Below are positions 13,659-37,225 of a stretch of DNA of 38,221 nucleotides, piece by piece. Below the pieces are notes generated by a model. That model made no database searches. It worked only from the letters and a program-made list of their open reading frames with translations, and had not been told where the DNA came from. The first letter of the stretch is position 1, and every line of letters begins with the position of its first letter. The translations under genes were made by a program, and so were the position numbers. Location of the stretch: IMG/VR virus record IMGVR_UViG_2565956731_000004, positions 1 through 38,221 of that record; one strand, given 5' to 3'. The DNA comes from a virus (taxonomy: Duplodnaviria; Heunggongvirae; Uroviricota; Caudoviricetes).

Positions 13659-13812
13659 TGCTCCCCCTGAGTAATTACAGGAAGATTACCCGCGCGCGAA
13701 ACCGTTCTCCTTAACCCCCTGTTCTGGCCGTTTTCTTACAACAAAAGCCCTTTGTATCAGCCTGTTACGCTTTGCCATCATGACTGAAGAACCAGTCAGA
13801 GGGGCAAAAACC

Positions 13813-16571: not shown

Positions 16572-16672
16572 CGACTGACCCCGTCAGCGGGCGGCGTGCG
16601 CGGTGTTCCGGTTTGACTCCGTGACCGTTTACACCGCGCACCCACCGCCCGATTTTTTTCAGGAGTGAACCC

Positions 16673-17367: not shown

Positions 17368-17369
17368 CA

Positions 17370-20644: not shown

Positions 20645-20647
20645 ATC

Positions 20648-21544
20648 ATGCCCGCTGTTGACCTTTCCCAGTTACCGGAACCCGCCATCATCGCGGAGCC
20701 TGACTTTGAGGCAATTCTGGCTGACACAAAGGCCATGATGATTGCGGCTTATCCCGCCGAACAGCGTGAAGCCGTCTCCGCCGCGCTGGAGCTGGAATCG
20801 GAACCCCTGAACGTTATCGCCCAGACAACAGCGTTTCGTGAAATGCTGTTACGCCAGCGGGTCAATGAGGGGGCACGCGCCTGCATGTTAAGCCACAGCG
20901 CCGGGACAGACCTGGACAACCTCGCGGGCAATATGAACACAAAGCGCCTGACCATCACTCCGGCAACGGATACCACCGACGCAGTGATGGAAAGTGACAC
21001 CTCGCTGAGACTGCGGGCGCAGCGGGCGTACGATGGTCTGAGTGTTGCTGGCCCGTCAGGTGCATACGAGTATTTTGCACGCAGCGCCAGCGGTCTGGTA
21101 CGCGATGCGCGGGCCATCAGCCCGTCTCCGGCCAACGTGACGGTTTCCATCCTGTCCACTGAGGGCGACGGCACAGCAACGGAGGCGTTGCTTAATACCG
21201 TTCGCGCCGTTCTGAATGCAGAGGATACCCGCCCGGTGGCCGACCGCCTGACCGTACAGAGTGCCAGAATCATGACATGGCGGCTGAATGCAAAACTGTA
21301 CTTTTACCCCGGCCCGGAATCCGAACCTATTCTGGCCGCGGCGGAATCGTCGTTCAGGAAGTGGCTGTCTGAGCAGGGGCTTATCGGTCAGGACGTGGCG
21401 TTGTCAGCCATTGCTGCCGCACTGCATGTGCACGGTGTGCAACGCGTGGAGATAATCGAACCCACACAAAATATGGCCATCAGCGACATACAGGCGGCGC
21501 GCTGTGAGTCATTCACCATCAGCGAAGGTGGGCGTAATGAGTAA
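20648..21544 (+). CDS. J: baseplate protein J
   Basis: 298 aa; position and size as P2 J. Confidence 0.9.
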   Translation: MPAVDLSQLPEPAIIAEPDFEAILADTKAMMIAAYPAEQREAVSAALELESEPLNVIAQTTAFREMLLRQRVNEGARACMLSHSAGTDLDNLAGNMNTKRLTITPATDTTDAVMESDTSLRLRAQRAYDGLSVAGPSGAYEYFARSASGLVRDARAISPSPANVTVSILSTEGDGTATEALLNTVRAVLNAEDTRPVADRLTVQSARIMTWRLNAKLYFYPGPESEPILAAAESSFRKWLSEQGLIGQDVALSAIAAALHVHGVQRVEIIEPTQNMAISDIQAARCESFTISEGGRNE

Positions 21545-22067
21545 TTCACTGTTACCGCCATCAGCCAGCAATTTCATGCGTTGTGCCGAAGCTATCGGAA
21601 CGCGCATTACAGACATTCCGGTAGACCTCAACACGCTGTGGTCGCCGGACACCTGCCCGGTGCATCTGCTGCCTTATCTCGCCTGGGCATTTTCCGTTGA
21701 CCGCTGGGATCGCAACTGGCCGGAAGAGACAAAGCGACAGGTGATTCGTGATGCATGGCTGATACACCGACACAAAGGGACCATCAGCGCACTGCGCCGG
21801 GCCATTGAGCCGCTGGGATACCTCATTCGTGTGTCTGAGTGGTGGGAGTTCGGCGGAGAACCGGGAACATTTACCGTTGAAGTCGGCACGCTGGACAGTG
21901 GCGTGACGGAGGAAATGTATCTGGAAATGGAGCGGTTGATTGCTGATGCCCGCCCGGTCAGCCGCCACATGACAGGGCTGAATATCATTCAGGAGATCCC
22001 GGGGGATATTTTCGCGGCGGCAGCAACTTACGACGGTGAAGTCATTACCATTTATCCGGACGATTAA
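21537..22067 (+). CDS. I: baseplate / tail protein I
   Basis: 176 aa from the ATG overlapping the J stop. Confidence 0.85.
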   Translation: MSNSLLPPSASNFMRCAEAIGTRITDIPVDLNTLWSPDTCPVHLLPYLAWAFSVDRWDRNWPEETKRQVIRDAWLIHRHKGTISALRRAIEPLGYLIRVSEWWEFGGEPGTFTVEVGTLDSGVTEEMYLEMERLIADARPVSRHMTGLNIIQEIPGDIFAAAATYDGEVITIYPDD

Positions 22068-22069
22068 GC

Positions 22070-24241
22070 ATGAGTACCACAACACGAAAATTTAAAACCA
22101 TTATCACTGATACTGGTGCCAAAAAATTAGCTCAGGCAGCCGCGCCAGATGGTAATCCTGTCCGCCTGACTCACATGGCCGTGGGCGACGGTGGCGGCAC
22201 GTTGCCCACACCAGACAGTAAGCAGACCCGTCTGGTGCATGAGGTGTGGCGACATACTGTTAATCGCGTCATCCTGGACGCAACACATCAGAACCGCATT
22301 ATTGCGGAGCTGGTTATTCCTCCTGAAACGGGCGGATTCTGGATCCGGGAAATTGGTGTATTTGATGAGCACGGCGATTTGATCGCGGTGGGCAATACTG
22401 CCGAAAGTTACAAGCCAACCGTTGCCGAAGGATCCGGACGTGCACAAACATTTCGCACCATTCTGACCGTATCCAGCACTGCCACCGTGGCGCTTACCGT
22501 GGATAACACCATGGTTATGGCCACAGTGGATTACGTGAATGACAAACTGAAAGAACATGAACAGTCACGACGTCACCCGGACGCCTCGCTGACCGCAAAA
22601 GGCTTTGTTCAACTCAGTAGCGCCACTAACAGCGATTCTGAAACGCTGGCTGCAACGCCGAAAGCGGTTAAGGCCGCGTATGACCTGGCTAACGGAAAAT
22701 ATACCGCTCAGGACGCCACGACGGCACGAAAAGGGATAGTCCAGCTCAGCAGTGCAACCAACAGCACGTCTGAAACGCTGGCAGCGACACCAAAAGCGGT
22801 TAAGGCGGTAATGGATGAAACGAACAAGAAAGCCCCATTAAACAGCCCGGCACTGACCGGAACGCCAACAACACCAACTGCACGACAGGGAACGAATAAT
22901 ACCCAAATCGCAAGCACGGCTTTCGTTATGGCCGCGATTGCCGCACTTGTAGATTCGTCACCTGACGCACTGAACACGCTGAACGAGCTGGCGGCGGCGC
23001 TGGGCAACGACCCGAATTTTGCGACCACCATGACTAACGCGCTTGCGGGTAAGCAACCGAAAGATGCCACCCTGACGGCGCTGGCCGGGCTTGCTACTGC
23101 GGCAGACAGGTTTCCGTATTTTACGGGGAATGATGTTGCCAGTCTGGCAACCCTGACAGAAGTCGGGCGGGATATTCTTGCGAAATCGACCGTTGCCGCT
23201 GTTATCGAATACCTCGGTTTACAGGAAACGGTAAACAGGGCTGGTAACGCCGTTCAGCGTTCCGGCGATAAAATGACCGGAGAACTGAAAATTGGCACGA
23301 TGAATGCGCTGCGAATTTTTAATGATGCCTTCGGTCTTATTTTCCGTCGTTCAGAAGAGTCCCTTCATTTCATCCCTACGGTTGAAGGACAAGGCGAAAA
23401 CGGTGATATCGGCCCATTAAGGCCATTCGCTATAAATCTAAGAACAGGTGCTATATCTGTCAGCCACGGGGCCAAAATTGATGGTGGGCTGGCGCTTGGT
23501 ACGGATAACGCACTGGGCGGTAATTCAATTACTCTCGGAGATAACGATACCGGTATTAAACAGGGCGGCGACGGTGTCCTTTTATTCTATTTAAATGGAC
23601 AACTGGCATTTGGGCTTCAACCCGCATCTGCTGATTTTTATAAGCGGGTTGCATATACTCATCAGGGAATAGTTCCTGAAGGAAGTGGCGCATTTGCAGA
23701 CCAGTTGAATAATGCCACCGCGCCTTTTGTTCAGACACGGTTTGCCTGGAATCCCGCTCCTGGTGGTCATTACGTGCCGATAGCTAAGGGCCTGTCTATT
23801 CGCAATGGACAGGGGTATCCGGGTGCTGTCAGCTTTGGCTATTTACTGACAGAACAAATGGGATTTCCAATTCCATGTGTTCATATGCGTGGCGATGGCG
23901 GTAATGATGTTTTATGGCAGTTTAACCCAAACGACAAATCTTTTATTTCACCGGGTTCTCTTGTTGCGGGCGGAGTACGTTATAACACCGATGGAAATAT
24001 ATTTGGCGGGTGTTGGGGTTCAAATTTAGCTGATTATCTTAATAGCACATATGTAAGAGACATTCGACTTGGAAGCGCAGAATCAATATCAGCATGGCGA
24101 GGTCCTGGTTACTGGGATACTTCTGGATATGTTCTGACCGCAGCCGGAAACAGCAACACCGATGAATTTATTGATACATTAACCAGAAGGCCTATTCAGA
24201 AGTTGATTGGTGGGACATATTATAACGTTGTGAGTATTTGA
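22070..24241 (+). CDS. H: tail fibre protein H (constant N-terminal part plus currently expressed variable C-terminal part)
   Basis: 723 aa; tandem protein repeat ([26 protein letters not shown] twice); the invertase crossover site lies inside the gene at 23202..23227. Confidence 0.9.
23202..23227. other. DNA-invertase crossover site (hix/gix/cix-like), left
   Basis: TTATCGAATACC-TC-GGTTTACAGGAA; 23 of 26 identical to the reverse complement of the site at 26216..26241; matches the recalled Hin/Gin half-site pattern (TTxxxxAAACC / GGTTTxxxxAA). Confidence 0.8.
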
Positions 24242-24242
24242 C

Positions 24243-24770
24243 ATGATGCATTTAAAAAACATTAAAGCAGGGAACCCAAAAACACCTGAACAATACCAGT
24301 TAACCAAAAAAGCTGGAGTGGTCTGGCTTTATACTGAAGATGGTAAAAACTGGTACGAAGAACAAAAAAACTTTCAACCAGATACTATAAAAATTGCATA
24401 CGATAAAAATAATGTGATTGTTACCGTAAGCAAAGATGTTTCAACTATTAACCCGGAAGGTTTAAGTGTTGTTGAAGTATCCGATATTACGGCAAATCGT
24501 CGCGCAGACAATAACGGAAACTGGATGTTTCTGGATGGTAAAGTAGTAAAGCGGGAATATACAAAACAGGAGCTGCAACAGCAGGCAGAGTTACAAAAAG
24601 CCACTTTGCTTTCCGAAGCGGAGTCTGTGATTCAACCGCTGGAACGTGCTGTCAGGCTGAATATGGCAACTAATGAGGAACGCGCACGACTGGAGTCATG
24701 GGAACGCTACAGTGTTCTGGTCAGCCGTGTGGATACGGCAAATCCTGAATGGCCACAAAAGCCTGAATAA
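24243..24770 (+). CDS. G: tail fibre assembly chaperone (P2 gpG-like), currently expressed copy
   Basis: 175 aa immediately after H; N-terminal half nearly identical to the inverted copy. Confidence 0.8.
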
Positions 24771-24775
24771 AAATT

Positions 24776-24795
24776 AAGGCCCGATAGCGGGCCTT
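24776..24795. terminator. bidirectional hairpin between the convergent chaperone genes
   Basis: AAGGCCCG-atag-CGGGCCTT. Confidence 0.6.
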
Positions 24796-24798
24796 GTC

Positions 24799-25332
24799 TC
24801 ATTCTGGTTGTTCCGGGAATGTTACAGGAAGAACAGAGGTATCTGTGACATCAACCTGCTGCATGTATAACATCCAGTTAATGAGTCTTTGCCTGTCTGA
24901 ATCGCTGATAATTCCCAGCGCAAGCTGTGTTTGCCAGCACTGCGTTTCCTCTCTGGCCTGTCGCAGCAAAATCTGTTTCTGAATTTCAGCCAGTTGACGT
25001 AGTTCTTCATCAGTCCGGGGGCGTTTCATGACCTTGCCATCCTGAAACACCCAGTCACCGAGAATATCGGCCCGGCGATTCGCTGTCGTGTCGGGTAATT
25101 CGACAACGCTCATTCCTTCCGGGTTAATAGACGACACATCTTTTTCAATATAGCGAATGATACCTCTGTCATCGTAAGCGATTTTTAGTGTGTCTGCCTG
25201 AAAGGCTTTTTGTGCCTCATACCAGTTCTGACCATCTTCAGCGTAAAGCCAGATAACACCATGTCTCTTTGTTAACTCATACTGTTCCAGTGTTTTAGCA
25301 TTACCCGCTTTTATGTTCTTTAAGTGCATCAT
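24799..25332 (-). CDS. alternative tail fibre assembly chaperone (G'), silent orientation
   Basis: 177 aa; [11 protein letters not shown]... N-terminus shared with G, divergent C-terminal half. Confidence 0.75.
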   Translation of the reverse strand: MMHLKNIKAGNAKTLEQYELTKRHGVIWLYAEDGQNWYEAQKAFQADTLKIAYDDRGIIRYIEKDVSSINPEGMSVVELPDTTANRRADILGDWVFQDGKVMKRPRTDEELRQLAEIQKQILLRQAREETQCWQTQLALGIISDSDRQRLINWMLYMQQVDVTDTSVLPVTFPEQPE

Positions 25333-25333
25333 A

Positions 25334-26233
25334 TTAAACGCTCGCTACATTATACCAGGTGCCATTTATATACTTTTGAACGGGTCTGTAATAAACGCCC
25401 GCTATATTATCGGCAGAGTTGGACCCTGTATCCTGAACATTAATACCAGACAATACATGACCTGACGGGCACTGGAAATTCCATGTTTGCCAGTTGTTCA
25501 CACCATGATATTGCTGTGAACCAAGACGAACATCTTTCACATAGCGGGAATCAAAATTCCCCCAGTTACTGGGTTGTATCTGACCGTTAACAGCAAATAT
25601 TACTGAGTTATCTGTATTTCGCTGACTATAGAAATGCCAGCCTGAATCATCACCAAGCTCTGCAACAGTTGGTCTTGATGAAGTGCCCCATAAATTAAAC
25701 CCTACGTTCTTCGTGGAGTTGTTGGAGCTGGATAGCGTGAATTTTTTACCATCCCCAGCCTGAATATTTTTAAAAGCAATAGCCACTCCATTCTGAAAGC
25801 GGAATACACGCTGACTATTAGCATAAACATCAAGAATACCGTCTCCATTCTGTTTAAATCCGGTATCATTATCACCAAGAACAATAGAGCTACCACCTAA
25901 CGCATTCGTCGTACCGATCCCCACACTGCCATTAATGACAGCATTAACAAGAATATTTAGTGCATCCCATTTCAGCGTCATCAGATCTTTTGTTGTGGTA
26001 CTTTGTTTGCTTCTCCATTTGAAATATTCATTGCCGTTGTCGCCTGTTTCAAACCACATGTATGAATCAGTATCGCTGTCGGCATCATTTTTAAATCCAA
26101 TCTTTGCCCAGTCAGTATTTCGAATCCAGGCAAGGATTGAGTCGTTTTCAAAAGTAAGTCCACCGGACAAGGTATCGCCTGTCTTTTGAACGGCGTTAGC
26201 AGCCTTGTTTACCGTTTCCTGTAAACCGAGGTT
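25334..26233 (-). CDS. alternative tail-fibre variable C-terminal segment (H'), no own start, silent orientation
   Basis: Open frame runs from the right crossover site; begins ...[31 protein letters not shown], which matches the H constant-variable junction ([17 protein letters not shown]); shares LGG-SI-LGDNDTG-KQ-GDG motif with the expressed variable part. Confidence 0.75.
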   Translation of the reverse strand, partial: NLGLQETVNKAANAVQKTGDTLSGGLTFENDSILAWIRNTDWAKIGFKNDADSDTDSYMWFETGDNGNEYFKWRSKQSTTTKDLMTLKWDALNILVNAVINGSVGIGTTNALGGSSIVLGDNDTGFKQNGDGILDVYANSQRVFRFQNGVAIAFKNIQAGDGKKFTLSSSNNSTKNVGFNLWGTSSRPTVAELGDDSGWHFYSQRNTDNSVIFAVNGQIQPSNWGNFDSRYVKDVRLGSQQYHGVNNWQTWNFQCPSGHVLSGINVQDTGSNSADNIAGVYYRPVQKYINGTWYNVASV

Positions 26234-26241
26234 TTAGATAA
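26216..26241. other. DNA-invertase crossover site (hix/gix/cix-like), right
   Basis: TTCCTGTAAACC-GA-GGTTTTAGATAA; inverted partner of 23202..23227. Confidence 0.8.
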
Positions 26242-26295
26242 TGGCCGTTTCCGGCCTGCATGGCATGATTTGCGCTTTTGGACGGGAGATTCAGC

Positions 26296-26883
26296 GTGCT
26301 GATTGGCTATGTAAGGGTATCAACAAATGACCAGAATACAGACCTGCAACGAAACGCTCTTGTTTGTGCAGGATGTGAACAAATATTTGAAGATAAATTA
26401 AGCGGGACAAAGACAGACCGACCGGGATTAAAACGCGCTTTAAAGCGCCTTCAAAAAGGTGACACGCTGGTTGTCTGGAAACTGGATCGCCTCGGGCGAA
26501 GCATGAAACATCTGATTTCTCTCGTCGGGGAACTACGGGAGCGAGGAATTAATTTTCGCAGTCTGACCGACAGCATAGATACATCTTCTCCAATGGGGCG
26601 TTTTTTCTTCCACGTGATGGGTGCCCTGGCTGAAATGGAACGTGAATTAATTGTTGAACGTACACTGGCCGGACTGGCGGCAGCACGCGCACGGGGGCGC
26701 ACAGGCGGACGTCGACCGAAGCTGACAAAAGAACAGCATGAGCAAATAGCAAGGCTGATCAAAAACGGGCACGACAGAAAACAACTGGCAATAATTTACG
26801 GCATTGGTATATCGACGATTTATCGTTACCACCCCGCAGGAGAATCAAGCGGAACAATAGAGAAGAGTCAGGAAACAAAATAA
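26296..26883 (+). CDS. serine DNA invertase (Hin/Gin/Cin/Pin family)
   Basis: About 195 aa from the GTG at 26296 (GGGAG RBS); VLIGYVRVSTNDQNTDLQ catalytic-serine N-terminus; C-terminal HTH (IYGIGISTIYRY); adjacent to the invertible segment. Confidence 0.9.
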   Translation: MLIGYVRVSTNDQNTDLQRNALVCAGCEQIFEDKLSGTKTDRPGLKRALKRLQKGDTLVVWKLDRLGRSMKHLISLVGELRERGINFRSLTDSIDTSSPMGRFFFHVMGALAEMERELIVERTLAGLAAARARGRTGGRRPKLTKEQHEQIARLIKNGHDRKQLAIIYGIGISTIYRYHPAGESSGTIEKSQETK

Positions 26884-26910
26884 CCGCTAATCTGACCATT
26901 AGCGGTTTTT
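26882..26910. terminator. hairpin terminator between the invertase and convergent U
   Basis: AACCGCTAAT-ctgacc-ATTAGCGGTT followed by TTTTT. Confidence 0.7.
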
Positions 26911-26918
26911 GTGTTAAA

Positions 26919-27413
26919 TCAGAACAGCCCTTTAACGGAGCTGGCCGCGCTGTTAAGGGATGATGTGACCTTATCTTTGAAGCCGGACAGCATATCACTG
27001 AACGATGAGGATTGCAGGCGCTCCCGCAAATCCTCATCACAGCGTTCAAGAGTCAGTGAAAATTCTATCTTTTTCGCCTTACCGTAGCGATCAAACTCGG
27101 AGCGGGTCGTATTCGTTTCAGTCAGTACATACATGCCGTAAATCTGCCCGACACCATCAATCAGAGGCCAGGGGCGTCCTGTATATGCCTGCGTGGTCAG
27201 CAGCGAAAGCGACACTTCGCCACCTGTAATTTCAGGATAAAGCACGCCGGAAAGCACAATGCGATCATCACCTGCACCGATATACTGCCAGCTTGCTGAA
27301 CGGTTAACGCGTTCATTTTTCACATGCCGCCAGCTTTTGTTTTGCTGTAACTGCTGATGCGGCAATGTGCGCAGCTCAAAAACAAACATGCCGTAGATCA
27401 TCATCATGGCCAT
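26919..27413 (-). CDS. U: tail protein U
   Basis: 164 aa; recognisable similarity to recalled P2 U (FVF-LRTLP, SGVLYPEI-GG); last gene of the leftward tail block. Confidence 0.85.
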   Translation of the reverse strand: MAMMMIYGMFVFELRTLPHQQLQQNKSWRHVKNERVNRSASWQYIGAGDDRIVLSGVLYPEITGGEVSLSLLTTQAYTGRPWPLIDGVGQIYGMYVLTETNTTRSEFDRYGKAKKIEFSLTLERCDEDLRERLQSSSFSDMLSGFKDKVTSSLNSAASSVKGLF

Positions 27414-27419
27414 GACTCC

Positions 27420-30233
27420 TCAATCTTTATCGTAAAAACTACCACGCCCGGCACGGGCGCGCCGTTCCATTTCTGCCCTGACCATTTCACCGACCAGTTT
27501 CGCCACTTCGCGGGGATTCTGCGTAACAACGTTATGCAGATGAACATGAATTTCACCGCCAAATCCGGAGACAGCAGGCTCCCGATTACGGGAAGCTGCA
27601 GGAACTGATGCCACTGGCGATCGTATGGCCTCCGCCACCGGGCGGGAGCTGGCCGCAACAACAGGGACCAGCGCCGGAGGCAGCGGAGCCGGGACTACGG
27701 GTGTGATATTAATTGCGGGGGGCTTACTGATCTGCGCAATCTTCCGCTCCTGCCACTCCCCACGAACAGCAAGTGCGCGGGGCAGGTTCTTAAAGACAAT
27801 ATCGCCGGGGCCAATGCGTTTTTTCGTCTCATCAACCAGCTTACCTGTGTTATCAGCAATTTTGCTGAGTCTGCGCAGCGTACCGGTATTGCTGTCTGTG
27901 AGCGGTTTATTGTCTTTGGGGTTATCACCTCCGGTGCCATTGCCATTTTCCACAGGCTTCGGCGGATTGATTTTCGCCAGGTCCCCCTGAAGCAAGGCAA
28001 CCTTGTCCTGAAGAATGGCCGCACGCTGTGCGTCTTCGATTTTCTTGCGCGCCCTTTCCGCTTCATCCGGAAGGACGCCAAGTTTTTCAAGTATCCACGC
28101 CAGCGTATCCAGCAGCATTTTTGCAGGTGTCAGAACAAGCTGTAACGCATCGCCAAGAACGTTACCGAATATCTCGCCAGCACTGGTACATTTATCCAGC
28201 GTTTCCTTGCTGGACTCCATCGGTGACAGCAGCGATTTAAACCAGTTAAACACCTGGCTGATCCCGCTCCCGATTGCGTCAAAAACAGGACCAAACCGTT
28301 CAAAGGTTTCGCGCAACGGGGTCAGCCTTTCCATAATCCCGCTGAACACCCCAGCAAAAAATGCCCTGATGGGATCCCAGTATTTCCAGATAAGAACGGC
28401 AGCTCCGGCAAGCGCAGCCACGATAAGACCAACCGGACTGAACAGCGCCCCGATAGCGCCTCCCAGTAAAGAAACGGAACCCGTCACCATTCCCCATAGT
28501 GCTGGCAGGACCCTGACAGCATTCATTGATCCGGTCAGGAGAGAAAAACCAAGACGCAGTTTTGCCAGCGGACCAGCAAGCACACCAATAGCCAGCGACA
28601 ACGAGCCAACCGTTGCAGTCACTGCCAGCAACGCACCGCCTGCTATCAGTAGCTGGCGCGTCAGTGCCGGATGGGCCTGCGCCAGCGCCGTCACCCTTGA
28701 TACCACCCGCGTGAGCCACTGCGTGACAGAACGCAGCGGACCGTCAATCAGATCTGCAATGCGGATGCGCAACCCTTCCCATGCACTGCCGAGTGATTTC
28801 AGATCGCCGTCAAGGTTGTTGGCCATAACCTTTGCGGTGCGTTCAGCCTCACCGCGCGCGCCTTCAAGTTCTTTTCTCAGTTTGGGTAAGGAACCGTCAC
28901 CCGCTGCATCAACGAGCGCCATAAACGATGTGAAAGCCTCTTCTCCGGCAATGTCCTTAAAGAACGATACCCGGTCAACTTCCCCGTATTTGCGGGTGGC
29001 TTTATAAAGGTCGGCCAGCACATCCTCCATCGGGCGCATTTTGCCCCCGGCATCCGAGACGGACACGCCCAGCTCTTTCAGAGCTTCTGCCGCCGCCTTT
29101 GGCGGTGATGCCAGACGAGCCAGGCTGGCACGCATTGCCGTCCCGGCATCACTCCCTCTGATGCCCATATTCGCCAGCACGCCAGCCATCGCTGCGGCCT
29201 GCTCCAGCGATATTCCCAGCTTACCCGCCACCGGGCCTGCATATTTCATGGTTTCGCCCAGTGCGCGAAGGTCAGTGTTGGTACGGGTAAACGCTGCGGT
29301 GAGTGTGTCACCGACCCGGTCCATCTGGTCAGCAGAAAGGCCGAACTGCGTCAGGATATTTGAGCCAATATCTGCCGTCTCGCCGAGATCCATACCGCCA
29401 GCCGTTGCCATGCTCAGCACGCCGGGAAGCGCAGCCTGAATGGCCTGCGGAGTGAAGCCAGCCATTGCAAGAAATGCCTGTCCACTGGCGGCATCGCCTG
29501 CGGTGAACTGCGTTTCAGAGCCAAGTTTTAACGCCTGCTCACGCAGCGCCTTAAACTGCGGGCTGTTCTGGTCGATTCGCGTCAGTGCCTGAACGCGGGA
29601 CATCTCTTTGCCGAACCCGATCGCAGGCTGCAAAAAACGCCCGGCAGCATAGCCGCCCGCCGCTGCCGCACCAATTGCCAGCGCACCACCTGTTTTCAGT
29701 TTTCCCGCTGTTTCCTGCGCGCGCGAATACCGCTCACGCGCCCGCGTTACACGCGCAAGCGCCTGCCGTTCGCGTTCAAGCTGGTTGTTGTACTGTTCGG
29801 TGCGTCTGATGGCCTGCTGGATGGTGTTATCGCTGCCTGTCAGGGAAATGCCGTGGCGTTTCAGCTCTCCGCCAAGTTCCCGCATTTTCTGAATTTCCCG
29901 TGTGCGCGATTCATTCAGGCGCTCAAGCCGGGTGCTTAACTGCTGCATCAGCTTTTGTTGTTTTTCGCTGAGCACTGTACCCGTGCGTTGTAACTGATTA
30001 AGGGCGTTAAGCTGGCGTCGTGCTTTCACGATGCCAGCATCCGCTTTACTGACAGCGTCACGGGCGCGCTCAAATGAACGCGCCTGACGCTCGAGATTTT
30101 TGATCGCCCCCTGCGTTCGCTGGATGGAGTCACCAAACTGCCCCATCAGGCGGCGGGCGTTTTCGGCAGGCCGGGTCAGCCTGTCAACGGCGCTGAAAGC
30201 GACCCGGATATCAAGAGTCTTCATTATCTGCAT
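27420..30233 (-). CDS. T: tail tape measure protein T
   Basis: 937 aa; coiled-coil N-terminus, Gly/Ala-rich hydrophobic central region; follows the E/E' chaperone pair. Confidence 0.9.
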   Translation of the reverse strand: MQIMKTLDIRVAFSAVDRLTRPAENARRLMGQFGDSIQRTQGAIKNLERQARSFERARDAVSKADAGIVKARRQLNALNQLQRTGTVLSEKQQKLMQQLSTRLERLNESRTREIQKMRELGGELKRHGISLTGSDNTIQQAIRRTEQYNNQLERERQALARVTRARERYSRAQETAGKLKTGGALAIGAAAAGGYAAGRFLQPAIGFGKEMSRVQALTRIDQNSPQFKALREQALKLGSETQFTAGDAASGQAFLAMAGFTPQAIQAALPGVLSMATAGGMDLGETADIGSNILTQFGLSADQMDRVGDTLTAAFTRTNTDLRALGETMKYAGPVAGKLGISLEQAAAMAGVLANMGIRGSDAGTAMRASLARLASPPKAAAEALKELGVSVSDAGGKMRPMEDVLADLYKATRKYGEVDRVSFFKDIAGEEAFTSFMALVDAAGDGSLPKLRKELEGARGEAERTAKVMANNLDGDLKSLGSAWEGLRIRIADLIDGPLRSVTQWLTRVVSRVTALAQAHPALTRQLLIAGGALLAVTATVGSLSLAIGVLAGPLAKLRLGFSLLTGSMNAVRVLPALWGMVTGSVSLLGGAIGALFSPVGLIVAALAGAAVLIWKYWDPIRAFFAGVFSGIMERLTPLRETFERFGPVFDAIGSGISQVFNWFKSLLSPMESSKETLDKCTSAGEIFGNVLGDALQLVLTPAKMLLDTLAWILEKLGVLPDEAERARKKIEDAQRAAILQDKVALLQGDLAKINPPKPVENGNGTGGDNPKDNKPLTDSNTGTLRRLSKIADNTGKLVDETKKRIGPGDIVFKNLPRALAVRGEWQERKIAQISKPPAINITPVVPAPLPPALVPVVAASSRPVAEAIRSPVASVPAASRNREPAVSGFGGEIHVHLHNVVTQNPREVAKLVGEMVRAEMERRARAGRGSFYDKD

Positions 30234-30749
30234 TCCCGCTGCGAAGTGCCGCCCGCTCGCGCCAGCTAACCACTTCGCCGGGCGTCATCATGAAGATTTC
30301 GGCAGGCGACCAGTTAAAAATGGCGGCAATATCCGCCACAAGATCTTCGATGTGCTCAAAGCACACCAGGGTGATTACGCTGCCGTCTCCTGCACGCTCT
30401 TCGCGCCAGAGTCTGGCTCGCTCATAAAATTTACAGCCACAGCGCACAACTGAATAAAATCACGTGACGACATTTTTTTAATCATCACTTCATCCAGTCG
30501 TGGCGAGGTCACGCGAGGCAACAGCGTGAACATGGTATCCGCTTTCAGATTCAGCACATCAGACAGCGACAGACCACGCAGGGATCCAGCCTGCTCAATA
30601 GCCCCGGTGATCTCCACATACGTGATTTTTTCGCCACCACGCTCAATTGGTCGGGTCAGTTTTACGCCACGTTCGACAGCCATATCCTCACCTGCCGTCA
30701 CATCATCCGCCACGGTGTTATTCCGGGTTTCAGTATCGATGTCTTTCAT
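30211..30749 (-). CDS. tail assembly chaperone E+E' (predicted -1 programmed frameshift product)
   Basis: Slippery heptamer A_AAT_TTT on the minus strand at 30426..30432; the -1 frame is open from there to 30211 and overlaps the T start, as in P2 E/E'. Confidence 0.6.
30375..30749 (-). CDS. E: tail assembly chaperone E
   Basis: 124 aa; AAGGAG RBS; between tube gene and tape measure gene. Confidence 0.8.
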   Translation of the reverse strand: MKDIDTETRNNTVADDVTAGEDMAVERGVKLTRPIERGGEKITYVEITGAIEQAGSLRGLSLSDVLNLKADTMFTLLPRVTSPRLDEVMIKKMSSRDFIQLCAVAVNFMSEPDSGAKSVQETAA

Positions 30750-30804
30750 CAGTTGTCTCCTTTTCAGTCAGAGGCGACGCACTGCGCCGCCTGCATATTA
30801 CTTA

Positions 30805-31317
30805 TCAGCCAAGCCCAAGCGCGGAACGGATGCGGTCAGGCACAATGTCCTTGCCGTCCTTCCGGTAGATGTGGTTCAACAGGTCGATTTCCCACAGCGG
30901 GCGATCGTTAACGCTCAGCTTGTAGTAGGTGTTTTTGACAGCGTAAGTGTGTGATGTGGCTTCGCCCTGTTTGGCTTCCCCCATATCAATTTCCGTCACA
31001 CGTCCGCGCATCTCAATTTCATACAGATCGCTTTCTGCATCGGTGTAGTATTCACCCGCAAAACGCAGCAGCGTGCCGTCAATCGTGCCGCCATATTTAA
31101 GGAACAGCGCACGAACAGCTCCCCCCATGACAAAGCTCGCATCAAGCGCGGAGTCGTCCAGACCGAGATCAATACTTACTGCCCCCATCATGCCACCACC
31201 CCGGTAGCTGTCGGTTTTGCGCGTCAGCTTAGGCAGAGTGACGGATGTCACTTTACCCACTTCGTTTTCACCATCCACAAACAACGTAAAAAAGCGAAGA
31301 TGTTTTGGTACAGCCAT
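30805..31317 (-). CDS. FII: tail tube protein FII
   Basis: 170 aa; directly downstream of the sheath gene. Confidence 0.9.
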   Translation of the reverse strand: MAVPKHLRFFTLFVDGENEVGKVTSVTLPKLTRKTDSYRGGGMMGAVSIDLGLDDSALDASFVMGGAVRALFLKYGGTIDGTLLRFAGEYYTDAESDLYEIEMRGRVTEIDMGEAKQGEATSHTYAVKNTYYKLSVNDRPLWEIDLLNHIYRKDGKDIVPDRIRSALGLG

Positions 31318-32501
31318 CAGGCACCTCCCAGCACCGCAAATGCGGGACCAAAGAATTCATCAGTAAACGTCTGGTAAAGCTCCATGTCTTCCAGCGGGGG
31401 AACGGGCGTATATTTGTAGCGAATACGCACACGCCCCTGACGTAAATCCGTGGTGCCGTTATCCACCACGTCATACCAGCACTCCGCGCCAATCAGTTTC
31501 CCGGCAGTAACCAGCGAATCCAGTTTTGCCCTGATGGCGCTGATAACATCCTTCACGTTCGCAGGCGTCAGTGGACTGTCGATGGTTTCAAACTGCGCTT
31601 CCGCAATTGAATCAGCCAGCACCTGTGCGGTTCGGGTATACACCTCAAAGATGTAGGCGTTCGTTTCCGGTGTGCGGTTGCCCCAGAAGCGGAACCCGTT
31701 GCGACGAATAATGGTCGTGATTTCTTTGTTGTTGAGGCTGTTGGCATCGCTGTCTTCGGCCTGCAACGACCAGAACACATGCCTCGACATCCCCAGCACA
31801 TTTTTAACCGGAACGTTGGACAGTGATTTGTGCCAGCCCTGCTCATGGTCAATGTACGCACGAAGGCCGCACGCATAGGCAGGCGCGGGGAACGTTTCGT
31901 TTTTGCCACTTTTCGGGTTGTAGGCGATGAAGTCCGGCCATAAGAGCATCACCTCACGTTCGTTGAATTTCTGGCGGTAGGTAATCGCATCAGCCATCGT
32001 GTCACAGCCATGACATGAGGCATACACAAACGCGCGCAGTTTACCCGCAATCACGCACAGGGATTTTGTCACCGCCTCCGTGTCCAGCTCCGGCGCGGCC
32101 AGAATACGCGGACGGTATCCGATGCTTTCATCCTGCTCTGCAACAAGCAGCGCATACATCCCCGTATAGCTGCCGTCAGATTCAGAACCACCGATAACCA
32201 GTTGATCCTGCGTCTTTCCGTCTTCTTCTTTGTGTTCAGCCACGCGAACGACGATCACCTTTGTGCTCACCTGGTCTGCGATGGCCTTAAGCGCACGATA
32301 AAGCGTCCCCGTTGTCCCGCATTTTCCCAGCACGTCATTGACGCGGGTCAGCAGTGTGGGCTTGTTCAGCGGGAACAGCTTCGCGTCCGCATCATCCGCC
32401 GTTGCCACGATACCGATAACGCTGGAATCAACATCGTTAATCGCTGTTACCAGGTCGGTATTTTCCGTAACACGGGCACCATGAAAACGAGTTTCACTCA
32501 T
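31317..32501 (-). CDS. FI: tail sheath protein FI
   Basis: 394 aa; recognisable similarity to recalled P2 FI (RAF-Y, QGWHK-LSNV, GFRFWGNRT, YTRTAQV, YTPVPPLE). Confidence 0.9.
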   Translation of the reverse strand: MSETRFHGARVTENTDLVTAINDVDSSVIGIVATADDADAKLFPLNKPTLLTRVNDVLGKCGTTGTLYRALKAIADQVSTKVIVVRVAEHKEEDGKTQDQLVIGGSESDGSYTGMYALLVAEQDESIGYRPRILAAPELDTEAVTKSLCVIAGKLRAFVYASCHGCDTMADAITYRQKFNEREVMLLWPDFIAYNPKSGKNETFPAPAYACGLRAYIDHEQGWHKSLSNVPVKNVLGMSRHVFWSLQAEDSDANSLNNKEITTIIRRNGFRFWGNRTPETNAYIFEVYTRTAQVLADSIAEAQFETIDSPLTPANVKDVISAIRAKLDSLVTAGKLIGAECWYDVVDNGTTDLRQGRVRIRYKYTPVPPLEDMELYQTFTDEFFGPAFAVLGGA

Positions 32502-32658
32502 AGCTTCAGCCCCTTGTATCCGTTAAATGATTCGGCAACAATCATCACCCACCACGCGCGTAATCTCACTCCTGCGCCATTCTCCCGCCACGGCGACAAC
32601 AAAAAGCAGTAACCCCCTCCGCACGCACATGCGACCATGCCGCACAGGGAGGGAACAG

Positions 32659-33768
32659 ATGACCGACACCACCATGCAATTGCTCAGTCAGGGCACAGAC
32701 CCCGTGAAAATGCCGGATTTTGATATTCTCGCGGAGGGTAAAACGCTGTCAGGCGTGGCAGAGCGCCTGATGAGCCTGTCACTGACCGACAACCGGGGAT
32801 TTGAAGCAGACCAGCTCACCATCACGCTGGATGATGCGGATGGTCAGTTGCAGCTACCGCCACGGGGCGCGCGCCTGACGGTTCTCATTGGCTGGAAAGG
32901 AGAACCGCTGACAGAAAAAGGCACTTACATTGTTGATGAAATCGCTCACGAAGGACCGCCGGACAGGCTGACTGTTTCAGCCAGAAGTGCAGATTTTCGG
33001 GATGAATTTAACGTTAAACGTGAGGTGTCCTGGCATGATGTGACCGTTGAACGTGTGGTATCCGCCATCGCTCATCGGTACGGCCTGAAACCGCAAATCA
33101 GCGAAATGCTGATGGATATCGAAATCGACCACGCCGACCAGACTGAAGAAAGCGACATGTCCTTCCTTACGCGCATGGCGGAAATGCTGGGCGCAATCAC
33201 CACGGTAAAAAGCGGCAATCTGTTATTCATCATGCCAGGTGGTGGCGTGAACGCACAGGGCCAGCCGTTGCCCTCGTTCGCCATTACACGCAGCAGCGGC
33301 GATCGCCATCAGTTCCGCATTGCTGACCGCGAGGCGTATACGGGGGTACGCGCCTACTGGCTTGATCTTAATTACGGGAAAAAGAAAAAAGTCAGCGTGA
33401 AACGCCGCAAACCGCCAAAACCCAAAAAGGAGAAAAGCAGCAGCCGTGAAGGTGATTATATGGAAGGCGCGGAAGGCAATGTGTTTGTGTTACGCAAGAC
33501 TTATCAGAACGAGCAGGCAGCAAGACGCGCAGCGGCGGCAAAGTGGCAGCAGCTACAACGCGGAGCCGCATCATTCTCCATCACACTGGCACGCGGACGC
33601 GCAGAACTCTACCCCGAAATGCATGGCACGGTAACAGGATTTAAAAGCGAGATTGATAATCAGGACTGGATTATTGCAAAAGTCGAGCACACCGTTGATA
33701 ACAGCGGCTTTACCACGCAGCTTGAGCTTGAAGCAAAAATCCCGGAATGGATAGCGGAAACAGAATGA
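32659..33768 (+). CDS. D: tail protein D (late control gene D-like)
   Basis: 369 aa from the ATG with GGGAGGG RBS (MTDTTMQLL...); divergent from FI rather than downstream of U. Confidence 0.85.
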   Translation: MTDTTMQLLSQGTDPVKMPDFDILAEGKTLSGVAERLMSLSLTDNRGFEADQLTITLDDADGQLQLPPRGARLTVLIGWKGEPLTEKGTYIVDEIAHEGPPDRLTVSARSADFRDEFNVKREVSWHDVTVERVVSAIAHRYGLKPQISEMLMDIEIDHADQTEESDMSFLTRMAEMLGAITTVKSGNLLFIMPGGGVNAQGQPLPSFAITRSSGDRHQFRIADREAYTGVRAYWLDLNYGKKKKVSVKRRKPPKPKKEKSSSREGDYMEGAEGNVFVLRKTYQNEQAARRAAAAKWQQLQRGAASFSITLARGRAELYPEMHGTVTGFKSEIDNQDWIIAKVEHTVDNSGFTTQLELEAKIPEWIAETE

Positions 33769-33879
33769 GCGATTTGGAGATATTAAATCAAACATGAGTA
33801 AATATTACCAATAACAGAGTGTACTTATTGGATGTATAGTTCTTTCATTTTTTAGGAGAAATTAAGAAAATTAACTCAA

Positions 33880-33911
33880 TGTGCACCTTATAAAGGCGCA
33901 CACTTTGTTTT
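33880..33911. terminator. bidirectional hairpin between D and the ParA-like gene
   Basis: TGTGCACC-ttataaa-GGCGCACA followed by a T-rich run; perfect with one G-U pair on the minus-strand transcript. Confidence 0.55.
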
Positions 33912-33916
33912 GCATG

Positions 33917-34975
33917 TTAAAAATTATTTATTATGTGTTCAGCTAAATGATCATACTCACCAGCCATCTCATTCATTAGTTCTACCTGATTAACTGCCCA
34001 TTGCCCCCGCCCACGAAGAGCATTCGTTGGCCTAACTCGAGACAAATAGCGAATAGGTATATTTTGAATAATACTATCAGGAGCCATAACGTTGAGGTCC
34101 TCAATCTTTCCAACTGGTTCATAATCAGTAAAATCAGGAACCGCGTTGTAAGATGAAATCTGTGAAAGCTGAGGAAGCATTTTTTCCTCTATCGCTTTTC
34201 TTATTGAACGGTGATGAACTGCATCTGCACCAACCTCTTGTTTAACATCATTTTGCTTTCTCGTATCAAAACCATTGAATATCCAACCGCCAAATTTAGG
34301 CATCCCTTTCTGAGATATAATATTATCTCGTGGGTTACCTGATAGATATCTTTCCTTGCCCTGCTCCCAATCACGTATAAATGATGGCAACATCTCACCA
34401 ATCAGCCCTACACAATATGAAGAGAATAAATCAGGTGTGCATGGAACTAAAAAATAGTCCGAACAGTACAATGACGATCTAACAAGCGTATTGAATGAGG
34501 GAGGTAAATCTATTAGGACATAATCATAAATAACATCATTTTTCTCTGATGCTTTTTTTGTTATCAAATCTGGCAAAATAAAACGATATAACCCTGCGCC
34601 ACTTATAACATCAGTGCCGACATTTAAAATATCTGAAAATGTATTAAGCCAAAAGTCTCCAGGAACAATATGCAAAACGCCTGCATCTGTCTTAGTCTTA
34701 GGTTCTGTTGTATAAACTTCACCTATAGTATTTTGTTGTATGTAAGGCAATGCAAATGCTTTAACCGTTTTTCCAAAAGGGAAATCATCTGAAGGTTCCA
34801 ATAACTCTGAAAATTCCTCATCACCAATACATGCAATTGAGAGATTACACTGGGGATCAAAGTCTATTAATAAAACACTTTTTCCTTTATCTGCTAGCGA
34901 TACTGCAAGATTCCAAATTATAGTTGTTTTACCAACACCACCTTTGTTATTAAAAATCGATATAGTTTTTGTCAT
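33917..34975 (-). CDS. ParA/MinD-family P-loop ATPase with about 100-aa C-terminal extension, AT-rich gene
   Basis: 352 aa; deviant Walker A KGGVGKTT near the N-terminus; LLIDFDPQCN and DYVLIDLPP motifs; flanked by AT-rich intergenic DNA; composition clearly AT-richer than the tail genes. Confidence 0.8.
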   Translation of the reverse strand: MTKTISIFNNKGGVGKTTIIWNLAVSLADKGKSVLLIDFDPQCNLSIACIGDEEFSELLEPSDDFPFGKTVKAFALPYIQQNTIGEVYTTEPKTKTDAGVLHIVPGDFWLNTFSDILNVGTDVISGAGLYRFILPDLITKKASEKNDVIYDYVLIDLPPSFNTLVRSSLYCSDYFLVPCTPDLFSSYCVGLIGEMLPSFIRDWEQGKERYLSGNPRDNIISQKGMPKFGGWIFNGFDTRKQNDVKQEVGADAVHHRSIRKAIEEKMLPQLSQISSYNAVPDFTDYEPVGKIEDLNVMAPDSIIQNIPIRYLSRVRPTNALRGRGQWAVNQVELMNEMAGEYDHLAEHIINNF

Positions 34976-35234
34976 TTACAACCCTTATTTCAGTGAAATT
35001 TTCGTTGAGAATCAGCATTTGTTTTTTTGCATAAACCACAATTCAACTTTGAGATTAACACAAGCCTTATTGTTATACATTAAAATCCTACTCAAATGAC
35101 ATCATTGAGATACTCATGTAATTTATTCGCCACGACAAAGCCTACTTCAGTGACTTGCTCAAAGCGGAGTTGCTGTTGGAATCTGAGTTGGGGCAACTTA
35201 GAATGGTGGCAGCACCACGTTAAGGGAGGTCGCT

Positions 35235-35495
35235 ATGTTTCGTTGTCCGCTTTGTGGCGCATCTGCCCGTATCCGCACCAGTCGTCCTGAAAATGATTCA
35301 AACACCGTGCGGCAAAAGTATTACCAGTGTAACAATCTGGAATGCGGCGTATGCTTCTCAACACTGGAAGCTTTCCATAAATTCACATCAAAACACGCCT
35401 CCGGCGCTCTCTCTTCAGAAGGTATCCCGTGGCATAAGCTGCCAGCTTCACACAGGGGAAACAATCAGATGAGTTTGCCTTTACCTCAGAATTAA
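35235..35495 (+). CDS. ogr: late gene activator, Ogr/Delta zinc-finger family
   Basis: 86 aa; MFRCPLCG...YYQCNNLECGVCF Cys4 arrangement as in P2 Ogr; located near the prophage right end. Confidence 0.75.
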   Translation: MFRCPLCGASARIRTSRPENDSNTVRQKYYQCNNLECGVCFSTLEAFHKFTSKHASGALSSEGIPWHKLPASHRGNNQMSLPLPQN

Positions 35496-35916: not shown

Positions 35917-35948
35917 CCCGCAGCGTAAAAACTGCGGGTTTTCTTTTT
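35917..35948 (+). terminator. intrinsic terminator after the hok-like locus
   Basis: CCCGCAG-cgtaaaaa-CTGCGGG followed by TTTTCTTTTT. Confidence 0.7.
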
Positions 35949-35980
35949 GGTATCCCCATCCATAAGCAATAGGCATAACA

Positions 35981-36018
35981 GATCGATGCAATAAATCCGA
36001 TCGATAAAAACGATCGAT
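35981..36018. promoter_or_regulatory. cluster of three GATCGAT motifs upstream of the com-like / methyltransferase operon
   Basis: GATC at 35981, 35999 and 36012, each within GATCGAT, about 45 to 80 bp upstream of the com-like start. Confidence 0.45.
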
Positions 36019-36062
36019 TTGTTATCATATCGGCAGCAGTAACCACACAAGAGGTGCCGCAA

Positions 36063-36260
36063 ATGACGCAAAATGTACGATGCAAAAATTGCAACAAACT
36101 ACTTGCCCGCGCCTCATTTCACTACATTGAAATAAAATGTCCGCGCTGCAAAACACTTAACCAGATAACGAGAGCCATTGAGCCCCCCACACACATGAGG
36201 AGTTATGACCGTGGGGATCGCAATCCAGCACCAACCAGCACATACACCGGAACACACTAA
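36063..36260 (+). CDS. Com-like zinc-ribbon protein (Mu Com family)
   Basis: About 65 aa from the ATG at 36063 (AAGAGG RBS); VRCKNCNKLLARASFHYIEIKCPRCKTLN matches recalled Mu Com (IRCKNCNKLLFKA...HIEIRCPRCK); 3' end overlaps the methyltransferase start by 56 nt. Confidence 0.6.
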   Translation: MTQNVRCKNCNKLLARASFHYIEIKCPRCKTLNQITRAIEPPTHMRSYDRGDRNPAPTSTYTGTH

Positions 36261-36996
36261 GGTTTATCAGACTGACAATGCCACGCTCTGTCGTGGGAAT
36301 GCGCTGGAAATATTGCCGCTGATTGAGCCAGAAAGTATTGATGCCTTAATCACTGACCCGCCTTACAGTTCGGGCGCGACACACAAGGCCGGACGCACCA
36401 ACCAGGGCAGCCACGCAAAATATCTGAACGGCGAGAACCTTCATCGCTTTGATGGGTTTGCGGGTGAAAACATGGATGCCCGTTCGTGGGCTTACTGGAC
36501 ACAATTATGGATGGCACAGGCACACCGCGCAGTCAGGCCGGGCGGTTATGCCCTGGTATTTACTGACTGGCGACAACTGCCAGCTTTAACCGATGCGTTT
36601 CAGGCCAGCGGTTTTACATGGCGTGGAATCATTGCGTGGAACAAAGGAAGGGGGTCACGAACACCCCATACGGGGTATTTCCGGCATCAGTGCGAATACA
36701 TCGTCTGGGGCAGTAAAGGCCATTTAGGTAAATCGCCTTCGGGACCGTTCGACGGCTGCATGACGTTCCCGGTTATCCCATCAAAGAAAATGCACCCGAC
36801 CGGAAAACCAGAAGAACTTATGGCAGAACTGGTCAGGACTGCGAATAGTGGTGGAACAGTCCTTGATCCTTTTATGGGATCGGGAACAACGGGTGTTGCA
36901 GCACTGAAAGCAGGGCGCAAATTTATTGGTATAGAAACCAGTGATCATTATTTTGATATAGCAACACAACGGCTCAAAACGGCGATCGAACCATAA
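36205..36996 (+). CDS. DNA methyltransferase (N6-adenine/N4-cytosine class, DPPY motif)
   Basis: 263 aa; catalytic DPPY (LITDPPYSS) near the N-terminus and AdoMet motif DPFMGSGTTG near the C-terminus; GAGG RBS. Confidence 0.85.
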   Translation: MTVGIAIQHQPAHTPEHTKVYQTDNATLCRGNALEILPLIEPESIDALITDPPYSSGATHKAGRTNQGSHAKYLNGENLHRFDGFAGENMDARSWAYWTQLWMAQAHRAVRPGGYALVFTDWRQLPALTDAFQASGFTWRGIIAWNKGRGSRTPHTGYFRHQCEYIVWGSKGHLGKSPSGPFDGCMTFPVIPSKKMHPTGKPEELMAELVRTANSGGTVLDPFMGSGTTGVAALKAGRKFIGIETSDHYFDIATQRLKTAIEP

Positions 36997-37000
36997 GACA

Positions 37001-37022
37001 AAGCCCGCAATGTTGCGGGCTT
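37001..37022 (+). terminator. hairpin after the methyltransferase
   Basis: AAGCCCGCA-atgt-TGCGGGCTT, 5 nt after the stop; weak T-run. Confidence 0.5.
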
Positions 37023-37040
37023 ACTCTACCTCTCGAAAAT

Positions 37041-37060
37041 GTGGTCACTGCGTGGACATA
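37041..37060. other. candidate attR core
   Basis: gtggtcactgcgtggacata; 17 of 20 identical to 11..30 at the int end. Confidence 0.4.
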
Positions 37061-37225
37061 CGCTGATACAAATCCTTTTATATCAAGAAATTAAATCTTT
37101 GTTTTTTTCATCAACAAGGATTTTCACGTTTGTGTTACCTGTATGAGACGAGAGTTAACCAGACAAGTGTGCCATAATCTCGCGGCCAGGCATACTTGCG
37201 AAGATTTCAGGTATAAGGATACGTA

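Follow-up and report, generated by a model that had tools for sequence, protein, structure and literature searches.

An inverted FI-to-U tail block as the probable normal late-gene layout of a branch of P2-like phages, with predicted divergent FI/D promoters

The late genes of phage P2 are organized in operons P, O, V, and F under the control of Ogr, and genes H and G are followed by FI through U and then D and ogr, all on one strand. In the P2 annotation, the divergent P and O genes share one activator site (3057-3087), and their transcription starts are at 3016 (minus strand) and 3127 (plus strand). Divergent late promoters sharing one activator site, as in the P2 PP/PO pair, have also been described in phage Smp131, and the consensus of the Ogr-type site is TGT-N12-ACA (PMC3931495). 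Several P2-like phages closer to the prophage studied here are known to be functional. P88 is mitomycin inducible and plaque forming, and its genome was obtained from phage DNA (PMC5285337); the Citrobacter phage phiSM is released spontaneously, forms plaques, and lysogenizes (PMC6456863); and SEN4/5 forms plaques and has a myovirus morphology (PMC5261728).

We analyzed a stretch of 38,221 nt from the IMG/VR virus record IMGVR_UViG_2565956731_000004 (positions 1 to 38,221), referred to here as the window. Homologues of FI, FII, E, T, U, and D, that is, a P2-like tail module of the Peduoviridae, are present at 33 to 49% identity (Pfam and tblastn with P2 proteins; Table 1), and the late gene set shared with P2 shows 25 to 78% protein identity. 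The window also resembles P2 in having an Ogr homologue, a candidate TGT-N12-ACA-type site equally far from FI, a predicted E/E' frameshift, and putative divergent P/O promoters. However, the codirectional FI-FII-E-E'-T-U-D operon that follows H and G in P2 is absent. U, T, E/E', FII, and FI (26919-32501) are all leftward, while H, G, the invertase gene, and D are rightward, FI and D being separated by a gap of 157 bp (32502-32658). An earlier note on this DNA had described exactly this arrangement, which it took for a likely inversion of the block with respect to P2, and it is borne out by the ORFs, by Pfam, and by tblastn with P2 proteins: the hits of FI, FII, E, T, and U are on the minus strand, whereas those of D, H, and G are on the plus strand. 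Unlike in P2, FI to U are inverted, so D would be transcribed separately. The P2-type order is not universal in Peduoviridae.

Table 1. Positions of the features discussed in the text (window coordinates)
Feature	Coordinates	Strand	Evidence or remarks
Second dyad of Ogr type (TCTggccgttttcttACA) in the divergent P/O gap	13723..13740		
Invertible segment: tail-fibre C-terminus and assembly gene, two orientations	23202..26241		26-bp crossover sites 23202-23227 (-) and 26216-26241 (+)
Gin/Hin-type serine DNA invertase	26296..26883 (GTG start 26296; longest ORF from TTG 26278)	+	Pfam Resolvase 1.5e-50 and HTH_7; matches Mu, D108 gin region
Hairpin scoring as terminator on both strands; invertase gene and U converge there	26882..26907		
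gpU homologue, tail protein, end of leftward block	26919..27413	-	Pfam Phage_P2_GpU 5.5e-39; 46% to P2 U; position and length as P88 gp44
gpT homologue, tape measure protein	27420..30233	-	Pfam PhageMin_Tail 3.6e-58; 33% to P2 T
gpE and E' extension	30214..30749 (E = 30375-30749)	-	Three-frame translation and slippery-heptamer scan; weak Phage_TAC_7 match; P88 annotates gp46 and gp47
gpFII homologue, tail tube	30805..31317	-	Pfam Phage_tube 8.3e-46; 42% to P2 FII
gpFI homologue, tail sheath, start of leftward block	31317..32501	-	Three sheath Pfam domains; 45% to P2 FI
Divergent FI/D control region	32502..32658		Gap 145-165 nt in most of 48 related loci; conserved alignment blocks
Predicted -10 hexamer of FI promoter, GATGAT	32541..32546	-	Predicted start near 32534; inferred from comparison
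Predicted Ogr-type activator dyad TCTcccgccacggcgACA	32581..32598, centre 32589.5		Consensus TGT-N12-ACA, one mismatch (TCT)
Predicted -10 hexamer of D promoter, GACCAT	32633..32638	+	Predicted start near 32645; inferred from comparison
gpD homologue, baseplate hub/late control D	32659..33768	+	Pfam Phage_GPD 1e-17; 49% to P2 D
Ogr/Delta-type zinc-finger late activator, CX2C-X24-CX4C	35235..35495	+	Pfam Ogr_Delta 5.1e-14; 42% to P2 Ogr

The genes of the block are intact, each of them being full length and matching its P88 counterpart. In E/E', a -1 frameshift heptamer A_AAT_TTT lies in register at 30432-30426, and the E' frame is open down to 30214, so that E' would be reached by a -1 frameshift upstream of T, as in P2-like tail modules. 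D is 99% identical to P88 D in one alignment (96.5% by tblastn) and is preceded immediately by a GGGAGGG ribosome-binding site.

Comparison with the closest relatives, which the earlier note had proposed as a check, identified phages with the same organization. A single alignment of 7.6 kb at 95.7% identity pairs window positions 26198-33769 with P88 26879-34434 and spans both junctions of the block, window positions 4484-22806 align to P88 at 97%, and the match as a whole is collinear over about 27 kb of P88 at 95 to 97% nucleotide identity. By its high identity and gene order, the window prophage can probably be classified as P88-like, within the genus Xuanwuvirus. The window, P88, and phiSM agree in gene order over the entire prophage, and they have the invertase, the invertible fibre segment, and the divergent FI/D gap in common. 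What sets the window apart is 1.4 kb of low-GC DNA inserted between D and ogr, an amber codon in the endolysin gene, and differences in the early genes at 1 to 4.5 kb. SEN4/5, a more distant relative, has the same FI-U/D order, and phiT5282H, 3LV2017, and KSP20 are annotated in the same way. Annotated public records of several recognized phage genera already show the layout, as does a partial record of a Serratia phage. In the literature searched, no paper takes up the inversion explicitly: the words invert, orientation, and gene order do not appear in the P88 and SEN4/5 papers (PMC5285337, PMC5261728), nor does inversion in that of phiSM (PMC6456863).

Together with the stop codon in the endolysin, the arrangement had previously been considered a possible mark of a defective prophage. 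On such a reading, a recent inversion of the 5.6-kb block would have cut D off from its promoter and the genome would be decaying. The order is indeed unlike that of P2 and the stop is real (TAG at 17927-17929). However, P88, phiSM, and, more distantly, SEN4/5 all form plaques with this order, an observation that the earlier note had named as refuting it and that contradicts the reading as a defect; the same order and junctions are found in 1,349 Escherichia coli genomes and the order in all 48 related loci described below; and the block genes are complete and correspond one by one to those of P88. The endolysin codon is CAG in P88 (tblastn), and the amber codon is an unrelated single C-to-T point mutation elsewhere in the genome. 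The window copy may fail to lyse cells, from a cause unrelated to the inversion. We consider a recent inversion followed by decay extremely unlikely.

The invertase-to-D stretch (7.5 kb) is collinear in 1,349 of 5,426 complete E. coli genomes, about a quarter, counting those in which at least 80% of it lies in one collinear place. An assembly artefact with the block misoriented, another possibility raised earlier, has nothing in its favor besides the difference from P2. Both junctions are identical in these independent complete genomes and in phage genomes from different platforms, and a scan for inverted repeats spanning the FI-U block found only short pairs at chance level, with no long flanking repeats able to mislead an assembler. 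This explanation can practically be dismissed. The layout is extremely common in E. coli and as such matters little for discovery, but prophage callers and readers that use P2 as a template should not count it as rearranged or defective.

Among 80 prophage loci sampled from GTDB species genomes, the inverted order was found in 48, which are all the loci whose D is 61 to 98% identical to that of the window and which represent more than 20 genera. The canonical order was found in 31 loci, with D at 47 to 54% identity, and one locus could not be classified. None of the 48 clade loci or of the phage relatives examined carries the block in the opposite orientation. The inverted branch includes Xuanwuvirus (P88), Novemvirus, Senquatrovirus, Reginaelenavirus, and many prophages of Enterobacterales. 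In its members, the orientation of the segment comprising the PF promoter and FI-FII-E/E'-T-U is invariably opposite to that of P2, U runs towards the tail-fibre/invertase region and meets it at a two-way terminator, and FI diverges from D across about 150 nt.

A split between the inverted and the canonical loci is present in all four of the neighbor-joining trees made for D, FI, FII, and U, while the tree of the baseplate protein J shows no such split. Since the J tree differs from the other four, the tail module has recombined among backgrounds, and any single inversion would concern the module and not whole genomes. It could be that the layout was acquired by recombination as a ready-arranged tail module and was not inverted in place, as a module that moves between backgrounds would suggest. 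However, the genes of the block are about as similar to their P2 counterparts as those outside it (identity to P2 of 45% for FI, against 49% for D, 47% for Q, and 44% for P), and because of this the block does not look like a foreign graft. Besides, P2 and the distant phiCTX are both canonical; since all the outgroups examined have this order, an inversion must have occurred somewhere in the history of the module in any case. Acquisition in this form is rather unlikely, and it is an explanation of the spread of the layout rather than of its origin. Outgroups and trees together suggest a single old inversion as the source of the layout, probably independent of the adjoining Gin-type invertase. 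We conclude that the inverted FI-U order is very probably the normal, functional late-gene layout of a deep P2-like branch of the Peduoviridae, with divergent FI/D promoters as a probable component.

A further explanation would have this invertase flip the block through secondary crossover sites, whether as a continuing switch or in the event that first created the layout. One junction does adjoin the invertase gene and its terminator, as noted earlier (the gene ends at 26883 and the hairpin occupies 26882-26907), and invertases of the Gin/Hin family are known to act on secondary sites. However, a search of the window that allowed up to three mismatches gave just two crossover sites, one at either end of the 3-kb tail-fibre segment (23202-26241), which carries an 85-nt inverted repeat and two Caudo_TAP genes on opposite strands. 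There is no third site near 26.9 kb or 32.5 kb at this threshold, in agreement with the earlier search of both junctions by eye. The fibre segment and the invertase are 80 to 92% identical to sequences of the Mu group and resemble the Mu G segment with Gin (and P1 Cin, e14 Pin, and Salmonella Hin), whereas the FI-to-U block has no flanking crossover sites and its orientation is fixed. Moreover, an invertase accompanies the block in only 5 of the 48 inverted loci, three canonical loci have one between G and FI, and the other orientation occurs in no clade locus. The invertase thus appears to be unrelated to the orientation of the block; an ancient event with since-decayed sites is conceivable, but a flip by the invertase is, overall, very unlikely.

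The earlier note had also considered a lineage-specific architecture with a divergent FI/D promoter region, and this alternative gains support from the relatives and from the makeup of the gap. T[G/C]T-N12-ACA is present in 44 of the 48 related gaps, many with a perfect TGT, its center lying 80.5 to 88.5 nt from the FI ATG (a dyad match is expected by chance in 5% of 157-nt pieces). The PF site of P2 is located 82.5 nt from the P2 FI ATG, and the site is at 79.5 to 83.5 nt in 15 of 20 canonical loci. The motif NANNAT occurs 44 to 49 nt from the dyad center on the FI side in 25 of 26 representatives and on the D side in 20 of 26, with two more, the window included, having it one nt further out. 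Some features weigh against the promoter model. TCT replaces TGT in the dyad, both in the window and in its close relatives; the CGCGCGCGCATGAAA block conserved in relatives is degenerate in the window (CGCACGCACATGCGA), and the predicted leader of D is only about 14 nt long. A strict TGT-N12-ACA scan of the window gave 8 matches versus 9.2 expected, none of them in the FI/D or P/O gaps, the dyads having been found after aligning the relatives and permitting TCT. A sigma-70 consensus scan of 26 to 34 kb found no promoter in the gap, with matches not above those in shuffled sequences. Both null results are expected for activator-dependent promoters, yet they provide no positive support. Two other resemblances were set aside: GATTAC(C)CGCGCG, on the P side of the P/O gap and in the FI/D gap, is common only to the window group and one further locus (L048) and is not clade-wide, and an apparent TAGC(C/G)TGA match between P2 PF and the FI side in the clade does not line up with the dyad, being displaced by 4 nt, and is not used as evidence here.

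Judging from the conserved dyad and the mirrored -10-like hexamers in the gap, D would not have been left promoterless by the inversion, which the earlier note had supposed to separate it from the operon promoter. According to the mechanism that we propose, the old inversion would have brought the dyad-symmetric Ogr-type activator site of PF between FI and D, with -10-like hexamers flanking it on both sides at mirror-image distances. With one dyad and mirrored hexamers, one bound activator probably drives both the leftward FI-to-U and the rightward D transcripts, as the single P/O site does in P2. The likeness to PP/PO extends to a single dyad placed between a divergent pair of late genes and to promoter elements lying about 55 nt away on each side, although the pair in the window is FI and D instead of P and O and is a predicted one. 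These mirrored elements around one activator site offer a simple and testable account of D expression in the branch, and such symmetry could make the inversion of an operon harmless. We lean slightly towards the view that the FI/D gap is a second bidirectional Ogr-dependent late promoter, created when the inversion moved the PF site beside D, and that the symmetry of the site let the 5.6-kb late-operon inversion survive. If so, the branch would lack a V promoter and have four late units: P, O (extending as far as G), F (FI to U), and D. Unlike in P2, S and V overlap in the window, leaving no V-type intergenic gap, and its lysis genes are unrelated to those of P2.

The ORF map, Pfam matches and a tblastn search of P2 proteins against the window bear out the earlier note's description of a leftward FI-to-U block separated from a rightward D by a 157-bp gap. 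The strand flip is limited to FI-to-U, whereas in P2 the genes H and G are followed by FI, FII, E, E', T, U, D and ogr on a single strand throughout. A GGGAGGG ribosome-binding site precedes the D ATG at 32659, so the FI-D gap spans 32502-32658. At the other end, a hairpin with a terminator score on both strands (26882-26907) marks the point where U and the invertase gene converge. The E/E' arrangement is intact, since an A_AAT_TTT heptamer lies in register within E (30432-30426) and the -1 frame is open to 30214.

Features of the inverted block and its surroundings
Feature	Position	Strand	Sequence or content	Basis
H	22070-24241	+		ORF map + Pfam
G	24243-24770	+		ORF map + Pfam
Serine invertase	end at 26883	+		ORF map + Pfam
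U	26919-27413	-		ORF map + Pfam
T	27420-30233	-		ORF map + Pfam
E	30375-30749	-		ORF map + Pfam
FII	30805-31317	-		ORF map + Pfam
FI	31317-32501	-		ORF map + Pfam
D	32659-33768	+		ORF map + Pfam
Mu G-like invertible tail-fibre segment	23202-26241		two fibre C-termini, two assembly genes	26-bp crossover sites at ends
Predicted Ogr-type dyad, FI/D gap	32581-32598		TCTcccgccacggcgACA	alignment of relatives' gaps
Matching predicted dyad, P/O gap	13723-13740		TCTggccgttttcttACA	match to the FI/D dyad
Predicted FI-side hexamer	32546-32541	-	GATGAT	
Predicted D-side hexamer	32633-32638		GACCAT	

The window is a P88-like prophage. In a megablast of positions 24000-34000 against phage records, Xuanwuvirus P884B11, Escherichia phage P88 and Citrobacter phage phiSM were collinear with it (82-87% coverage, 93-96% identity), and several further Escherichia phages matched with lower coverage. 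Against the whole P88 genome, identity is 97% across 4484-22806, and a single alignment (26198-33769, 95.7%) covers the invertase/U junction, the entire block, the FI/D gap and D. In their annotations, P88 and phiSM share the gene order of the window, and SEN4/5 likewise has U-T-E-FII-FI leftward and D rightward. P88 is plaque-forming and was induced by mitomycin C, its growth curve was measured, and its sequence was determined on phage DNA (PMC5285337); phiSM is released spontaneously, makes plaques, can lysogenise K-12 strains and gives virions when its DNA is transfected (PMC6456863); and SEN4/5 is plaque-forming with myovirus morphology (PMC5261728). The inverted layout is therefore compatible with a working phage: the functional close relatives that the earlier note thought would speak against a defect exist, and the order they have in common favours its alternative of a genuine lineage-specific architecture. 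The phiSM record (L002 among the compared records, OR565851) is mislabelled, with the name "late control gene D protein" on the sheath and "ogr/Delta-like zinc finger" on D. In the 2019 paper phiSM is called a siphovirus whose tail is non-contractile, yet sheath and tube are encoded in its genome.

The observation in the earlier note is thus correct and the feature ordinary. Publicly available annotated genomes from several recognised genera already show the layout, which is annotated also in Enterobacter phage phiT5282H (Novemvirus), Klebsiella phage 3LV2017 (Reginaelenavirus) and the partial record of Serratia phage KSP20, and we found no comment on the inversion in the P88, phiSM and SEN4/5 papers (PMC5285337, PMC6456863, PMC5261728). 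It is neither an assembly artefact, as the earlier note had allowed, nor a one-off: 1349 of 5426 complete E. coli genomes contain no less than 80% of window 26250-33770 at a single collinear location, the top matches being single alignments at 98%.

Scanning a D-protein alignment against one genome per GTDB species gave 80 loci, classed by tblastn searches with proteins of the window and of P2. The inverted arrangement (J+ I+ H+ ... U- T- E- FII- FI- / D+ ogr+) was found in 48, the canonical one in 31, and one was unclassifiable. Inverted loci are exactly those whose D is 61-98% identical to that of the window, versus 47-54% in canonical loci, and their hosts comprise Salmonella, Trabulsiella, Symbiopectobacterium, Edwardsiella, Serratia, Erwinia, Enterobacter, Pantoea, Kosakonia, Citrobacter, Pectobacterium, Brenneria, Izhakiella, Klebsiella, Xenorhabdus, Providencia, Rouxiella, Dryocola, Photorhabdus, Hafnia, Morganella and Yersinia. 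The same split appears in each neighbour-joining tree of D, FI, FII and U and is absent from that of J; the sheath-to-D module is a single lineage, recombined with differing baseplate backgrounds. Since P2 and the distant Pseudomonas phage phiCTX, taken as outgroups, have the canonical order, we infer that the inverted state is derived. A recent foreign graft was ruled out, because identity to P2 proteins is alike inside (FI 45%) and outside the block (D 49%, Q 47%, P 44%). The FI/D region is disrupted in a few members of the clade, namely the loci L031 (a 410-nt gap, with the D match beginning only at residue 73), L014 (FI split) and L067 (FI start shifted), which are probably decaying prophages or carry insertions.

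Ogr-dependent late promoters of P2 have TGT-N12-ACA in common (PMC3931495), and the window encodes an Ogr homologue (35235-35495). Aligning the FI/D gaps of diverged relatives brought to light a T[G/C]T-N12-ACA dyad in 44 of 48 gaps of inverted loci; such a pattern occurs in 5% of random 157-nt pieces of the window. Measured to the FI ATG, the distance of its centre is 80.5-88.5 nt, with 88.5 for the window and the two relatives closest to it; to the D ATG it is mostly 64-82 nt. The site of PF, the P2 late promoter of the FI operon, is centred at 82.5 nt from the FI ATG, and 15 of 20 distinct canonical loci have a site at 79.5-83.5 nt; this conserved spacing suggests that the PF activator site travelled with the block.

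When 26 representatives (<85% identical to one another) were anchored at the dyad centre, NANNAT was found 44-49 nt away on the FI arm in 25 and on the D arm in 20, lying one nucleotide further out in two more. The FI and D arms had A at position 45 in 25 and 24 representatives, A at position 48 in 25 and 21, and T at position 49 in 25 and 23, respectively. The D-side elements of the window are weaker than the clade consensus. Its two hexamers predict starts near 32534 and 32645, which would lie about 55 nt to each side of the dyad, like the P/O pair of P2, where one annotated activator site (3057-3087) serves divergent promoters starting at 3016 and 3127. D is thus probably expressed from mirrored promoters around one dyad, a model that is only a modest addition of the present analysis. 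The late intergenic gaps of the window hold only two dyad sites (13723 and 32581), and S (19075-19719) overlaps V (19716-20297), so that no intergenic space lies between them for a V promoter of the P2 type; this suggests a single long O-to-G transcript in this lineage.

The invertase was rejected as the cause of the block's orientation. At up to three mismatches, the 26-bp crossover sequence occurs in the window only at 23202-23227(-) and 26216-26241(+) (0 expected), enclosing a 3-kb segment of alternative fibre C-termini and assembly genes with 80-92% identity to Mu, D108 and SfMu sequences; an inverted-repeat scan of the window found no comparable repeat flanking 26.9-32.5 kb. Only 5 of the 48 inverted loci have an invertase, and three canonical loci carry one between G and FI; it is cargo at a junction variable in both layouts.

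The endolysin stop that the earlier note took as a possible mark of a defective prophage is real. The gene (17690-18082, M15 peptidase) is identical to that of P88 at 129 of 130 residues, and a single C-to-T change turns codon 80 from CAG into the amber TAG (17927-17929), so this copy may be lysis-defective, unable to lyse its host. The mutation is unconnected with gene order, since the same order is found in relatives whose endolysin is intact.

Relative to P88, a 1.4-kb low-GC (0.36) insertion (33770-35177) parts ogr from D; in most relatives ~40 nt lie between the two genes. Within the insertion is a ParA/AAA_31-like ATPase gene on the minus strand (33917-34975), accompanied by a terminator-like hairpin of its own, and the sole defence-database match was weak and to the P-loop alone (PDC-M28B). 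Similarity to P88 stops near 35948; the region beyond (35948-38221), with a type II-like DNA methylase gene (36205-36996) and an ORF from 37226 onward with a weak GemA-like match, is possibly another mobile element. Because the integrase gene ends at base 1, the window does not include the left attachment site. A ParM-like actin-type segregation gene (8362-9321), unusual in an integrating P2-like phage, lies downstream of the replication gene in the early region, and P88 has it there too.
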